In this document: positions 23,267 to 27,266 of the stretch, in pieces
Layout of the letters: each line of letters starts with the position of its first letter
Position numbering within the stretch: the stretch's first letter is position 1
Source: Escherichia phage T4
Sequence record: OL964735.1
DNA length: 64,000 nt
Strand: one strand, 5' to 3'
Notes under the pieces: model-generated
The model's input: only the letters and a program-made list of their open reading frames with translations
What the model was told of the DNA's origin: nothing
Databases searched by the model: none
Made by a program: the position numbers and the translations under genes

Positions 23267-24231
23267 TGTATTCTTTAGAGGAATTTAATAATCAAGCAAT
23301 AAACGCAGATTTCCAACGTAATAATATGTTTAGCTGCGTTTTTGCGACAACTCCATCAACTAAAAGCTCTTCGTTGATAAGTTCAATTAGCAACTTTTCT
23401 TATAATAACTTGGGCCTAAATTCAGATTGGTTAGGATTAACTCAAGGTGATATTAATCAGGGAATTACCACGCTAATTACAGCTGGCACACAAAAACTGA
23501 TAAGAAAATCAGGAGTCAGTAAATATCTTATTGGTGCCATGAGTCAACGTACAGTTCAAAGTTTATTAGGCTCATTTACAGTTGGTACATATTTAATTGA
23601 CTTCTTTAACATGGCATATAACTCATCTGGATTGATGATATACTCTGTAAAAATGCCAGAGAATAGATTATCCTATGAAACTGACTGGAACTATAATTCT
23701 CCTAATATTCGTATAACCGGAAGAGAATTAGACCCTTTGGTTATTTCATTTAGAATGGATTCAGAAGCTTGTAACTATCGTGCAATGCAAGACTGGGTTA
23801 ACTCCGTTCAAGACCCAGTAACTGGACTGCGTGCTTTGCCACAAGATGTCGAGGCAGATATTCAGGTTAATCTTCATTCTCGCAATGGATTACCTCATAC
23901 TGCGGTGATGTTCACCGGATGCATTCCAATATCAGTGAGCGCTCCTGAGTTATCATATGATGGAGATAACCAAATAACTACATTTGATGTTACTTTTGCG
24001 TACAGAGTGATGCAGGCTGGAGCAGTTGATAGGCAAGCTGCGCTTGAATGGCTTGAATCTGCTGCTATAAATGGTATTCAAAGCGTTCTCGGAAATAGTG
24101 GAGGTGTTACTGGACTATCTAATTCGCTTTCACGACTTAGTAGATTAGGGGGAACTGCAGGAAGCATTTCAAACATTAATACTATGACAGGAATTGTCAA
24201 TTCGCAGAGTAAAATATTAGGAGCAATATAA
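23266..24231 (+). CDS. 54: baseplate tail tube initiator (T4 gp54)
   Basis: 321-aa ORF, TAATG overlap with gene 48. Confidence 0.92.
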   Translation: MYSLEEFNNQAINADFQRNNMFSCVFATTPSTKSSSLISSISNFSYNNLGLNSDWLGLTQGDINQGITTLITAGTQKLIRKSGVSKYLIGAMSQRTVQSLLGSFTVGTYLIDFFNMAYNSSGLMIYSVKMPENRLSYETDWNYNSPNIRITGRELDPLVISFRMDSEACNYRAMQDWVNSVQDPVTGLRALPQDVEADIQVNLHSRNGLPHTAVMFTGCIPISVSAPELSYDGDNQITTFDVTFAYRVMQAGAVDRQAALEWLESAAINGIQSVLGNSGGVTGLSNSLSRLSRLGGTAGSISNINTMTGIVNSQSKILGAI

Positions 24232-24235
24232 CAAT

Positions 24236-24260
24236 GGGGACCGAAAGGTCCCCATATTTT
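24236..24260 (+). terminator. intrinsic terminator after gene 54
   Basis: GGGGACC-GAAA-GGTCCCC hairpin followed by ATATTTTTATTT. Confidence 0.7.
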
Positions 24261-24550
24261 TATTTACGGAATGAAATGAAAGCAGCAACTGAAGCAACTA
24301 AACTGTCTTCAATATAAACTTCAATTTTTACAGGAGCTTCTGACTCAAATTTACCTGTTACTACACCCTGAAAAATACTTTCAGTCTGTTCTGGCTTTGA
24401 AAAATTTTCAGAAGGAAAAATTCCGAACTTTTTATCTGTTCCAAAAATTTTGATAAATTCATCGTAAACCGCTTCGTTAAAAGCATTATCAGCAGGAATA
24501 ACGCCTTCAACTACAAGTTCTTGACCTAAAAAGCGTAAAGAAGATTTCAT
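24260..24550 (-). CDS. hypothetical protein (T4 alt.-3 position)
   Basis: 96-aa ORF downstream of early promoter cassette. Confidence 0.7.
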   Translation of the reverse strand: MKSSLRFLGQELVVEGVIPADNAFNEAVYDEFIKIFGTDKKFGIFPSENFSKPEQTESIFQGVVTGKFESEAPVKIEVYIEDSLVASVAAFISFRK

Positions 24551-24557
24551 TTTGTGT

Positions 24558-24611
24558 TCCTCATGTTATGTTAGTAAGACTACTATAACACAACACGAGG
24601 GACTTGTAAAC
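24558..24611. repeat. 54-bp promoter/RBS cassette, copy 1 (pairs with 37700-37753)
   Basis: 53 of 54 identical to 37700-37753. Confidence 0.85.
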
Positions 24612-24612
24612 T
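24575..24612 (-). promoter_or_regulatory. early promoter (GTTTACA -35, 17-nt spacer, TGTTATAGT extended -10)
   Basis: minus strand motifs with sigma70-like spacing upstream of alt.-3 ORF. Confidence 0.6.
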
Positions 24613-24786
24613 ACATTTTGAACTTTTTAGTACGCGTAATAGGCATGCGTCGATTTTATACTGTTTCATTGTTTGAAGAGCAGTATCAAAAACAGCATTA
24701 ATGACACCAATTGGATTTCCACCCAAGTTTTTAAGCTTAACTAATGATAGTTTCTCATTAACACCTATCATTACGATATGCATCAT
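24583..24786 (-). CDS. Alt-like fragment ORF (T4 alt.-2 position), paralog of Alt residues ~65-125
   Basis: 67-aa ORF; MMHIV...QTMKQYKIDACLLRVLKS aligns to Alt MMHIV...QTMRQYKIDACMLRILKS. Confidence 0.6.
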   Translation of the reverse strand: MMHIVMIGVNEKLSLVKLKNLGGNPIGVINAVFDTALQTMKQYKIDACLLRVLKSSKCSLQVPRVVL

Positions 24787-24968
24787 TTTATCGCCTGGTT
24801 TAACGTTTTATTTGTATCACCGCCAGAGGTGTATGTACAAAATCTAAATCCAGGAAGTACACTTTCTTCACCGGCTTGAATAGCAAAAATTTGTGGTATT
24901 TTATGCTTAGGATTTAAGTTAACAACCGGCGCCGAAGCGCCGTCAAATAATTCTGTAATAAGTTCCAT
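24783..24968 (-). CDS. Alt-like fragment ORF (T4 alt.-1 position), paralog of Alt residues ~2-62
   Basis: 61-aa ORF; MELITELFD...KIPQIF...PGFRFCTYTSGGDTN aligns to Alt N-terminus. Confidence 0.6.
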   Translation of the reverse strand: MELITELFDGASAPVVNLNPKHKIPQIFAIQAGEESVLPGFRFCTYTSGGDTNKTLNQAIK

Positions 24969-24971
24969 GAT

Positions 24972-27020
24972 TTATCCTTGAACGAACTTGTAAGGCATGT
25001 TTGCAATATCTATGCAAGACGCAATAATTCCAAGAGATGATTCTACTTTCTGTTTAACATTTGATGAAACAAATGATGCAAAGTCAACTCTATCTTCTAT
25101 ATCACCTGTCATTGTAACCAATTCACCAGTTTCCATTAAATGGTCTCCGTCATAGATTACCGATTCGGTGAGTTCTTCTGTGGTCATAACTTCAGCTTGA
25201 ATAAGCTTGTTGTTAGTTTTAACTGTTCCATCATTGTAAGATGCATCGGTTATTTTATTAACTTTGACCATTAATCCACGTGGCAAAATGACTTCCATTT
25301 CATTTGAAGGCGCTAAACTTCCACCGGGTAAAACAACATTGACCTTATCAGCCCCAGTAATAACCCATCCAATTCCAACTAAATTATCGCTAGAATTTAC
25401 AAGTCCTTCATCAGTTTTATCAATAGAAACGCTTAAACGCTTTTCGTCTGGTAAAACACCTATAGATGAATCAGTCATCCAAGTACCAAAAATATTTGGA
25501 TATAATGATGTTGACACAAAGTTTCTAAAATAAAAAACTCGATTTTTTACCATTGCTTCGTATATTGAAGGTAACATTCGTTGTGAACGATACAAAGTAA
25601 TACCTTTTGGTAATCGTTCACCATTTTTAAAGGCTGAATCTAAATTATCAATAGCTTTTTCTATGTCAGATGCTGTCAAAATACTTGTACGCTCATCTGG
25701 ATTATATAATCCCAAAAGAGCATTATTTATGTCTACATATCCTGAACCTACGTATTCACGAATTCCGCGTTTTTGCGCTGGTGTGTATTTAGATGAATCT
25801 TTATTTTCGACTATAGGATGTAATGACCATCCAGCGGTAAGAGCATATCCACGTAATTCTCTTCGAATAATCTTTGTTTTTATTGCATTCCAAGAATTTT
25901 GTACTAACTCATTTGCAGCATCTTGGTTTAAATGCGAATGTTTGTTAATATTTCTTTCAAACCAAGCACCCTTATATTTTTCTAAAGTATCATCGACGAT
26001 AGAAGCAATAGTTTCTAAGGTTTTTATTGAAGTAATAGATTCTTTTCGTAATCTTTCTAAAGCTTTATTTTTTATTTCTGCGTTAATAATGGATTCTTTA
26101 TCTTCAGGAATTATAGAAGCTTCTCTGAATGCCATCCCAGCTGTAACACTGCTAAGAGCATTCTCTAGTGCAAATCCTGAAGTAGAAATTACCGTTAATT
26201 CATTAGAATCAGAAATTAAAGGCGCGTCCGCTGGTTTATTTAATTCGGCCGCTGAAGCCTCAAATTTTTGAAACATTGGTGTTTCAAATCTAGAAGATTC
26301 CAATGACTGACTTTGCGCAATTGCTCTACGGGAAATTTTAACTTTAACGATTACAGCTTGGTCAGAACGTTTATCATTTTCTTGCGCAATAGATGCTGCA
26401 ATTGCCTCATTTTTAGTTACTTGAGCCCCAGTATCTTTATTGATATAAACATCACCGACCTTCGATTCAACTTTAGTAAAGAGCTCGGTACTAATTTCCG
26501 GAACTCCTGGAATGTCTTCTAGTGATACATTTTTGCGATGTATAAGAATATATGCATACTTTTTATCGTAATCCCAGAGTTCCTTAAGAAGGACGTATCT
26601 ACCACCTGAACGACTACGGATAAGTCTATCAGCAATAACTTGAATTTGTCGAGCTTGGCCAGCAGTTTTAGACTTAAGAATACGGAGCATACAGGCATCA
26701 ATTTTATACTGGCGCATTGTTTGCATTGCAACAGTAAAAACTGAATTGATATAATTAATTGGGCTTGGACCAAGACCTTTTAATTTAGCAATTGAACCTT
26801 TAGCAGTTAATGTAAAAGGAACAATATGCATCATTTTATCGCCCATCTTTAAATCACGATTAGTATCACCTCCAGATGTATAGGTACATAAACGAAAGCC
26901 TGGTTGTTCAATTGCATCATCAACATGAACTGAAAAAATTTGCGGTATTTTCTTCTTTGGATATAAGTTTGTAATTGGAAGAGTAGTATCTTCGTCAAAT
27001 AATTCTGTAATAAGTTCCAT
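24972..27020 (-). CDS. alt: Alt ADP-ribosyltransferase (virion-packaged)
   Basis: track gives 683 aa from the first of two ATGs; GAGG RBS spacing favours the second ATG (682 aa). Confidence 0.93.
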   Translation of the reverse strand: MELITELFDEDTTLPITNLYPKKKIPQIFSVHVDDAIEQPGFRLCTYTSGGDTNRDLKMGDKMMHIVPFTLTAKGSIAKLKGLGPSPINYINSVFTVAMQTMRQYKIDACMLRILKSKTAGQARQIQVIADRLIRSRSGGRYVLLKELWDYDKKYAYILIHRKNVSLEDIPGVPEISTELFTKVESKVGDVYINKDTGAQVTKNEAIAASIAQENDKRSDQAVIVKVKISRRAIAQSQSLESSRFETPMFQKFEASAAELNKPADAPLISDSNELTVISTSGFALENALSSVTAGMAFREASIIPEDKESIINAEIKNKALERLRKESITSIKTLETIASIVDDTLEKYKGAWFERNINKHSHLNQDAANELVQNSWNAIKTKIIRRELRGYALTAGWSLHPIVENKDSSKYTPAQKRGIREYVGSGYVDINNALLGLYNPDERTSILTASDIEKAIDNLDSAFKNGERLPKGITLYRSQRMLPSIYEAMVKNRVFYFRNFVSTSLYPNIFGTWMTDSSIGVLPDEKRLSVSIDKTDEGLVNSSDNLVGIGWVITGADKVNVVLPGGSLAPSNEMEVILPRGLMVKVNKITDASYNDGTVKTNNKLIQAEVMTTEELTESVIYDGDHLMETGELVTMTGDIEDRVDFASFVSSNVKQKVESSLGIIASCIDIANMPYKFVQG

Positions 27021-27048
27021 CATATCCTCTCTAGTGTTTATTCTATTC

Positions 27049-27056
27049 TATTTATA
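27049..27056 (-). promoter_or_regulatory. late promoter TATAAATA upstream of alt
   Basis: minus strand exact motif about 29 nt upstream of alt ATG. Confidence 0.55.
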
Positions 27057-27077
27057 AAATTAAAGGCCCGAAGGCCT

Positions 27078-27266
27078 TTAATAATCTATTGGTAAGAGAG
27101 TACGATATATTTCAAACTTTGGACCTTTTTCATAAGCATCAAATGTTTCTGTGAATTTATTATAAGCATATGCATCTATAAATTCAATCATGATTTGTGA
27201 TACAGAAGTAGAAACATCTCCACCTTCTTTTTGAGCCACGACAATTGTTTCTAAGTAAGCTTTCAT
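27078..27266 (-). CDS. hypothetical protein (T4 alt.1 position)
   Basis: 62-aa ORF. Confidence 0.65.
   Translation of the reverse strand: MKAYLETIVVAQKEGGDVSTSVSQIMIEFIDAYAYNKFTETFDAYEKGPKFEIYRTLLPIDY

Follow-up and report, generated by a model that had tools for sequence, protein, structure and literature searches.

The alt.-1 and alt.-2 reading frames of bacteriophage T4 are very probably the 5' stump of a second alt gene that most of its relatives keep complete

Directly downstream of the alt gene of bacteriophage T4 lie two small open reading frames, alt.-1 and alt.-2, whose products resemble the beginning of the Alt protein; the question raised by this locus is where the two frames come from, and whether they still do anything. 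T4 Alt is an NAD+:arginine ADP-ribosyltransferase that is packaged in the phage head and injected with the DNA. The relation of the two frames to alt is already known in outline: the notes in NC_000866 take alt.-1 and alt.-2 together for an old duplicate of the beginning of alt that has since gained a stop codon and a new start, and Nolan, Petrov, Karam and colleagues listed both as paralogous duplications of alt in 2006 (PMC1524935). Working from a window of 64,000 nucleotides (the whole stretch of DNA analysed; sequence record OL964735.1), we arrive at a modest correction of the database notes, namely that the frames are the relic of a whole gene; whereas NC_000866 and AF158101 are annotated with a partial duplication, we describe a deletion stump, and define its breakpoints, the repeats that flank them and the order of its lesions.

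Over positions 24200..27100 the window matches several independent T4 genome records without a difference (100% identity), and AF158101 / NC_000866 at 99.9% (megablast). The minus strand carries, in order, gene 30 (DNA ligase), alt.1, alt, alt.-1, alt.-2 and alt.-3 (ORF map with RefSeq names); the baseplate genes 54, 48 and 29 are on the plus strand, convergent with the minus-strand genes. The features that matter here are as follows, with alt2 and Alt2 standing for the full-length second paralog of relatives and its product.

27049..27056, minus strand: exact match to the T4 late-promoter consensus TATAAATA, upstream of alt
24972..27020, minus strand: alt, the upstream paralog, a full-length ADP-ribosyltransferase of 682 aa (the ORF call extends to an ATG at 27023)
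24783..24968, minus strand: alt.-1, 61 aa; residues 1-54 are the equivalent of Alt2 1-54, after which come the frameshifted tail TLNQAIK and a stop
24806..24809, minus strand: frameshift site, a run of four A (A4) where intact alt2 has five (A5; AAT AAA AAC)
24783..24786, minus strand: ATGA, in which the stop of alt.-1 and the start of alt.-2 overlap, as read from the sequence
24583..24786, minus strand: alt.-2, 67 aa; residues 1-55 are the equivalent of Alt2 61-115, and the last 12 form a novel tail
24622..24630, minus strand: deletion junction, the sole remaining copy of the 9-nt direct repeat CTAAAAAGT, where the BLAST segments overlap
24583..24621, minus strand: out-of-frame tail of alt.-2, SKCSLQVPRVVL, and stop, from the alignment with full-length alt2 loci
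24582..24610, minus strand: predicted early-type sigma-70 promoter for alt.-3 (TTTACA, 17-nt spacer, TATAGT, with TG; 10/12 matches)
24260..24550, minus strand: alt.-3, 96 aa, DUF5498 (Pfam PF17602, E 1.4e-64)

The sequence-only reading had described two back-to-back minus-strand frames of 61 and 67 aa that overlap by 4 nt (ATGA) and together align to Alt residues ~2-125; the frames are exactly as claimed and the homology is real, but the alignment stops at ~118. By BLASTP, the 61-aa product matches Alt residues 2-63 with 58% identity (E 2e-22) and the 67-aa product residues 64-118 with 62% identity (E 2e-21), the Alt residue numbers following the 683-aa ORF; the last 12 residues of alt.-2 (SKCSLQVPRVVL) have no counterpart in Alt. 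Both frames also match the Alt family of PHROGs, phrog_802 (alt.-1 at positions 2-60, E 5e-19; alt.-2 at positions 64-120, E 8e-20), with additional matches to phrog_23015 for alt.-1 and phrog_15247 for alt.-2. The alt product carries the Pfam domain PF03496 at residues 374-614 (E 5.8e-36); neither alt.-1, alt.-2 nor their 128-aa fused form (see below) has any Pfam match, which bears out the further claim that the copy lacks the catalytic remainder. The ADP-ribosyltransferase (ART) catalytic domain with its R-S-E motifs is absent from both, the part of alt2 that encodes it (nt 349-2047) having been deleted; alt.-1 and alt.-2 are thus relatives of the Alt-like ADP-ribosyltransferase family and not functional members of it.

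The opening of the protein is what has been kept. Alt.-1 begins with MELITE, identical to Alt, and so retains a cleavage motif of the (L/I)-x-E type recognised by gp21. The prohead protease trims Alt itself at both ends, taking off six residues at the N-terminus (at ITE-6) and 63 at the C-terminus (at LTE-619; PMC5694885); the removal of this six-residue propeptide agrees with the role that had been ascribed to the Alt N-terminus, as the virion-targeting end. Set against T4 Alt, the remnant is ~60% identical over the N-terminal ~118 residues, the gp21-cleaved MELITE propeptide included, but unlike Alt it lacks both the catalytic domain and the C-terminal propeptide, its frame is split, and no protein from it has been detected.

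Comparison with relatives of T4 tells us what the copy once belonged to. The locus spans ~4.6 kb in some of them, against 2.9 kb in T4, and these phages carry two Alt-like genes; in Salmonella phage Jbel, alt (683 aa) is followed three bases on by a second gene of 685 aa, alt2, and then by alt.-3. T4 and Jbel are collinear from window position 27100 to 24622 (97.7% identity) and from 24630 to 24202 (96.5%), two blocks that share 9 bases in T4 and are separated by ~1.7 kb in Jbel; the gap is the body of alt2, and is the sole break between the two phages here. Seven full-length alt2 genes, with that of T6 the closest, share 94.8-96.8% identity with the remnant over their nt 1-348. A search with full-length alt2 hit 497 records, of which 402 have a single match over 80% or more of the gene, with T2, T6, RB10, RB14, RB27, RB51 and ime09 among the carriers, and amongst a spread sample of 60 rows of the search results the partial 5' matches all end at alt2 nt 348 (the census is based on GenBank phage records, since an exact-pattern scan of IMG/VR for the junction gave 2 contigs only). 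In the relatives' loci full-length alt2 sits between alt and alt.-3, which is the position of the T4 remnant, and alt.-3 lies downstream of full-length and shortened alleles alike; it is a conserved downstream neighbour, outside the duplication. The sequence-only reading had left to such a comparison whether the copy is intact, fused or absent elsewhere: it is intact, as a complete alt paralog, in ~80% of the relatives. We therefore consider it highly probable that alt.-1 and alt.-2 are the 5' stump of this second paralog, and together a pseudogene.

The stump departs from its intact ortholog by two lesions, a 1,699-bp out-of-frame deletion and a deletion of 1 nt. In six of the seven full-length genes the sequence CTAAAAAGT occurs both at alt2 nt 340 and at nt 2039, with a variant at the first site in G50; the 1,699 bp between the repeat copies are missing in T4, which is without alt2 nt 349-2047. 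A loss between direct repeats is what slipped-strand or microhomology-mediated deletion classically leaves behind. All 18 shortened loci retrieved share this junction exactly, which points to a single deletion event that would have spread via descent and recombination. Because 1,699 bp is not a whole number of codons, the reading frame of the stump departs from that of alt2 at the junction and runs past the old stop: the tail of alt.-2 is the last 11 nt of alt2 in the wrong frame, continued into the DNA between alt2 and alt.-3, and it ends 12 codons on. The predicted alt.-3 promoter lies inside this tail, and the record of phage Lutter has a promoter annotated at the corresponding place. The second lesion lies further upstream, where A4 in T4 in place of the A5 of intact alt2 brings a TGA into frame, overlapping two Met codons. 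This ATG ATG is the native Met61-Met62 of Alt2 (...GDKMMHIV... in Jbel), an old internal methionine pair, so that the start of alt.-2 is not a newly evolved one.

A stop (TAA in place of GAA) at codon 6, Glu6, adds a further variable site, and the 18 shortened loci fall into four classes:

GAA at codon 6 with A5, 3/18 loci (FL44, SYGD1, AV121): a single intact ORF of 128 aa
TAA at codon 6 with A5, 1/18 loci (fPS-90): stop at codon 6
GAA at codon 6 with A4, 6/18 loci (the T4 arrangement): both small ORFs intact
TAA at codon 6 with A4, 8/18 loci: stop at codon 6 and frameshift

Overall, 9/18 loci carry the codon-6 stop, 14/18 have A4 and 4/18 have A5; the A5 and A4 states are both polymorphic across the 18 loci, and recombine with the codon-6 stop. 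Further indels, all on an A4 background, are found in CE1 (-1 nt), HY03 (a 7-nt duplication) and F1 (-9 nt), those of CE1 and HY03 being frameshifts that fall in alt.-2. Amongst the 60 records most similar to T4 over a 451-nt query spanning the junction, 53 equal T4 in length, five fall one base short of it and two exceed it by one base; the frameshift is present in 12/12 T4-type records with 100% identity over this query, and in two T4 reference records at 99.6%. The A-run was also considered as a hypermutable contingency locus, a proposal we set aside: the study that treats such loci (bioRxiv 10.1101/2025.10.21.683753) uses runs of at least 6 nt, and the tract here is A5/A4.

A history that accommodates these states would begin with an ancient event in which the entire alt gene was duplicated in tandem, giving alt and alt2 before the genus Tequatrovirus arose; Alt2 would have kept the N-terminal module (~235 aa) and the R-S-E ADP-ribosyltransferase domain, whilst its middle diverged. 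In one lineage, slipped-strand or microhomology-mediated recombination between the CTAAAAAGT repeats may then have removed 1,699 bp, leaving, out of frame, a 128-aa ORF that runs into the alt.-3 promoter region and would survive in FL44, SYGD1 and AV121. Later loss of one A from the A5 run would have created the TGA at Met-Met and with it the 61-aa and 67-aa ORFs, with neutral decay following this homopolymer slip. We place the deletion before the frameshift because the A5 intermediate exists. That the remnant has not been purged from T4 is an observation we count against the pseudogene reading. T4 packages its DNA by the headful, a mode that puts little pressure on the phage to purge a remnant.

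How selection acts on the remnant can be gauged from variant counts. Over nt 1-348 the seven full-length alt2 genes differ by 39 synonymous variants and 1 nonsynonymous variant (ratio per site ~0.007), against 4 synonymous and 8 nonsynonymous variants, the nonsense codon included, that are private to shortened alleles (ratio per site ~0.56). The two sets differ (Fisher p = 5e-6); the private set fits neutrality (binomial p = 0.31 against an expectation of 78% nonsynonymous) and the full-length set departs from it (p = 5e-25). With 12 private variants, 7 comparators and variants treated as independent though phages recombine, we take this as an indication of relaxed selection on the remnant, from a small sample and from counts made without correction for phylogeny. 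At the level of the protein, the remnant is without detectable constraint. The decaying pseudogene that had been suspected from the T4 sequence is thus upheld, by relaxed selection and by the further inactivating lesions found in relatives.

Small proteins are easily missed in shotgun proteomics, and 'not detected' is correspondingly weak evidence. In the time-course data of Wolfram-Schauerte et al. 2022 (PMC9697503 Table S2), alt.-1 and alt.-2 are assigned to the transcript class 'middle', with protein given as 'NA' (not detected); alt.-3 is early at the RNA and the protein level, and alt is late (PMC9697503). The virion mass spectrometry supplement of PMC5694885 mentions Alt, and neither Alt.-1 nor Alt.-2. 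The late promoter TATAAATA is placed after a hairpin and T-run in the sequence, and late transcripts that pass from alt on into the remnant likely originate there. Inside the remnant we found neither a MotA-box middle promoter nor a late promoter, and the 'middle' class is accordingly probably read-through; the remnant is still transcribed, probably as read-through of the alt unit. An Rfam scan of 24150..25200 gave sub-threshold chance matches only.

Could the two frames nonetheless be functional, as a prohead-targeted module of the Alt type that tunes or competes with the packaging of Alt, or is injected, made either as coupled peptides or as a slippage fusion? Several features would suit such a role: a Shine-Dalgarno-like AAGGA precedes the ATG of alt.-1 by 7 nt, the two frames could be translationally coupled through their ATGA overlap, alt.-1 still has the MELITE cleavage motif, transcripts of both frames have been detected (PMC9697503), both ORFs are intact in T4 and five other sampled loci, and three of the 18 loci keep the single 128-aa ORF. 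Against this, half of the sampled shortened alleles stop at codon 6, alt.-2 is frameshifted by indels in CE1 and HY03, the private variants are mostly nonsynonymous, and the proteins went undetected (PMC9697503). Inspection of the sequence around the shift found no slippery heptamer of the X XXY YYZ type, which together with the polymorphism of A5 and A4 and their recombination with the codon-6 stop gives the locus little resemblance to a programmed ribosomal frameshift or a deliberately split gene. The deletion breakpoint, moreover, falls at residue 116, inside the ~235-aa module common to Alt and Alt2, and the extra paralog of the distant phage RB49 is a copy of the C-terminal catalytic part, so that fragments restricted to the N-terminus are not a design that has evolved repeatedly and independently. 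Small functional proteins of this kind are thus very unlikely in our estimation, and the suggestion that they compete for packaging finds no positive support, the proteins being undetected (PMC9697503) and codon 6 a stop in so many alleles. We would think it similarly improbable that the stump is alive as a late-made module (the 128-aa protein, or coupled Alt.-1/Alt.-2) that enters the prohead core by way of the interactions used by Alt, and so tunes Alt packaging or is injected, or that the repeated, independent loss of alt2 (of the T4 type and the sutha type) was itself adaptive, for example as an escape from a host defence able to sense Alt2.

The reading in the database notes is that the first ~350 nt of alt were duplicated in tandem, and that the copy later drew apart from alt, gaining a stop and a new start; a tandem segmental duplication of the alt 5' end had likewise been proposed from the T4 sequence. 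The copy does lie directly downstream of alt and, within T4, matches only the alt 5' end, as the RefSeq note says. It is, however, 95-97% identical to nt 1-348 of the complete alt2 of relatives and only 67% identical to alt: over alt nt 1-351 we count 238 identities in 353 columns (67.4%), an explicit count used in place of the MAFFT '80% mean column identity', which is not a pairwise identity. DNA to the right of the junction in T4 matches the last ~20 nt of alt2 and its 3' flank, the direct repeats lie at exactly both breakpoints in full-length alt2, and the supposed new start is the native Met-Met of Alt2. We accordingly give a partial duplication only a very slim chance, and prefer the stump of a complete paralog.

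The opposite polarity, in which the short T4 form would be ancestral and phages of the T2/T6 type would carry an insertion in alt.-2, is what the T6 GenBank record implies with its note of an 'apparent insertion in alt.-2'. Yet the long form is an uninterrupted ORF of 685 aa, collinear with Alt from end to end and with a genuine ART domain; purifying selection on it is strong, it is the majority state and it has orthologs in other genera, whereas the C-terminus of the short form is translated promoter and intergenic DNA. We regard an ancestral short form as scarcely credible: the annotations that speak of an 'insertion in alt.-2', or elsewhere of a 'hypothetical protein', have the polarity backwards. 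The ORF split lies in an A-run, which might suggest a homopolymer error made in sequencing or assembly; this has virtually no likelihood given that all independent T4 records, and 14/18 shortened alleles from different laboratories, agree on A4.

The intact paralog itself appears to be a working enzyme. Alt2 (685 aa) matches PF03496 (E 1.7e-19) with the R-S-E motifs present, and aligns end to end with Alt (41% identity, E 4e-156); conservation is strong over residues 1 to ~237, drops in the divergent middle and returns in the C-terminal part, with the motifs LYR(S/G)Q, FVSTS and E-x-E-VILPRG and the YDGDHLMETGE segment. On these grounds Alt2 is apparently a functional, active ADP-ribosyltransferase. 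It has MELITE at the N-terminus and QLEE aligned with LTE-619 of Alt, and from both protease-site contexts we infer that it is probably packaged and processed like Alt. The region unique to the middle of Alt2 is at least 95% conserved in 402 records, and has ~45%-identical counterparts in 44 more distant phages (dhabil, LHE83 and vB_EcoM_005 among them), which places the duplication before the genus Tequatrovirus; that this region differs from its equivalent in Alt suggests that Alt2 may have targets other than those of Alt. A single-sequence AlphaFold2 model of Alt residues 1-260 has a mean pLDDT of 42.7, too low for a domain boundary at 116 to be read from it, and a PDB sequence search with Alt returned zero matches. 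The literature we searched held no paper on Alt2 or its activity, and the gene goes under several names in GenBank: 'alt.-2' in RB14 and ime09, 'alt.-1' in T2 and 'alt_2' in several recent records.

T4 is therefore in the minority state, about four fifths of its close relatives, T2 and T6 included, encoding a second, apparently active enzyme of the Alt type; work on phage ADP-ribosylation that uses T4 alone would miss Alt2, an enzyme that, judged from its sequence, is probably active and probably injected. T4 is also not the only phage with an altered locus. ECML-134 has a single gene of 686 aa in which the N-terminus of Alt (~157 aa) is fused to the body of Alt2, a chimera that arose when the two paralogs recombined by unequal crossing-over. 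In phage sutha, an alt of the T2 type precedes an ORF of 117 nt; this ORF corresponds to the last 128 nt of alt2 at 94.5% identity, and is a 3' stump left by an independent deletion. In RB49, RB49p183 downstream of alt is a catalytic-domain-only ART of 274 aa. Like T4, these three have a rearranged or decayed tandem ART array after alt, but they differ from it, and from each other, in their breakpoints and in the parts that were kept. The locus also shows two allele classes of alt itself; with the chimera and the 3' stump, it looks like a fast-evolving site of an arms race.

Comparison of alt in the window (24972..27020, minus strand) with the corresponding gene in retrieved loci of relatives (L027 and L020-L025) separates two allele classes: a T4-type of 2049 nt and a T2-type of 2088-2094 nt. 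Working from the 5' end, we see that the two are 95% identical at the nucleotide level over the first 807 nt, with identity falling to only ~73% from nt ~1230 to the end of the gene. Both the truncated alt2, a 5' stump with the T4-type deletion, and its full-length counterpart are found alongside each allele class; taken together with the differences between the classes, this distribution points to mosaic recombination at what would be a fast-evolving locus.

Three phages carry other arrangements of this region:

ECML-134 (Escherichia phage, JX128259), locus L026, 960..3020: single gene of 686 aa between alt.1 and alt.-3
sutha (Escherichia phage, PV245934), locus L027, 2425..4628: alt followed by a short ORF
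RB49 (phage, NC_005066), locus L028, 11490..12314: gene for a 274-aa ADP-ribosyltransferase, downstream of alt

The ECML-134 gene is a chimera, joining the N-terminus of Alt (~157 aa) to the body of Alt2; here, the catalytic half of alt itself appears to have been lost, via unequal crossing-over of the tandem paralogs. In sutha, alt is T2-type (696 aa) and the 38-aa ORF after it matches the final 128 nt of alt2 with 94.5% identity—a second, independent route of alt2 loss, in which the remnant is a 3' stump rather than the 5' stump seen in T4. The RB49 enzyme differs again, its similarity to Alt being limited to the C-terminal catalytic part. A second ADP-ribosyltransferase beside alt is common in T4-like phages, with variable architecture.

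A two-gene alt/alt2 arrangement is also present in PV654520.1 (BLAST match H17; 97.7% identity to the T4 alt region), a record titled ‘Pseudomonas phage vB_PSGBLB0006’ with Pseudomonas aeruginosa ATCC 9027 as its stated host. Pseudomonas would be an unusual host for a Tequatrovirus, so this assignment may reflect a labelling or contamination issue.

Beyond the alt2 stump of T4 (alt.-1 and alt.-2), the window contains:

24582..24610: early-type promoter of alt.-3, inside the read-through tail of alt.-2
24260..24550, minus strand: alt.-3, 96 aa, DUF5498 (Pfam E 1.4e-64)
24234..24255: 9-bp GC-rich hairpin (ATGGGGACC...GGTCCCCAT) between alt.-3 and gene 54, which converge here

The position of the promoter means that a deletion of alt.-2 would have to leave 24582..24610 intact. 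Mutations producing a C-terminal extension of alt.-3 allow T4 to escape the CmdTAC defence (Vassallo et al. 2024, PMC11618068). On the plus strand a T-rich tail, ATTTTTATTT, follows the hairpin; a sequence scan also lists the minus-strand orientation, with tail TGTTATATTG, as terminator-like. Phages e11/2 and fPS-90 have annotated bidirectional terminators at the equivalent position.

Two differences from the T4 reference record were seen. At 24918..24919 the plus strand reads GT in the window, in all other T4 records and in all relatives, versus TG in NC_000866 / AF158101, where residue 17 of Alt.-1 consequently becomes Thr instead of Asn; the TG is probably an old sequencing error. Gene 54 is 963 nt long in NC_000866 versus 966 nt in the window.
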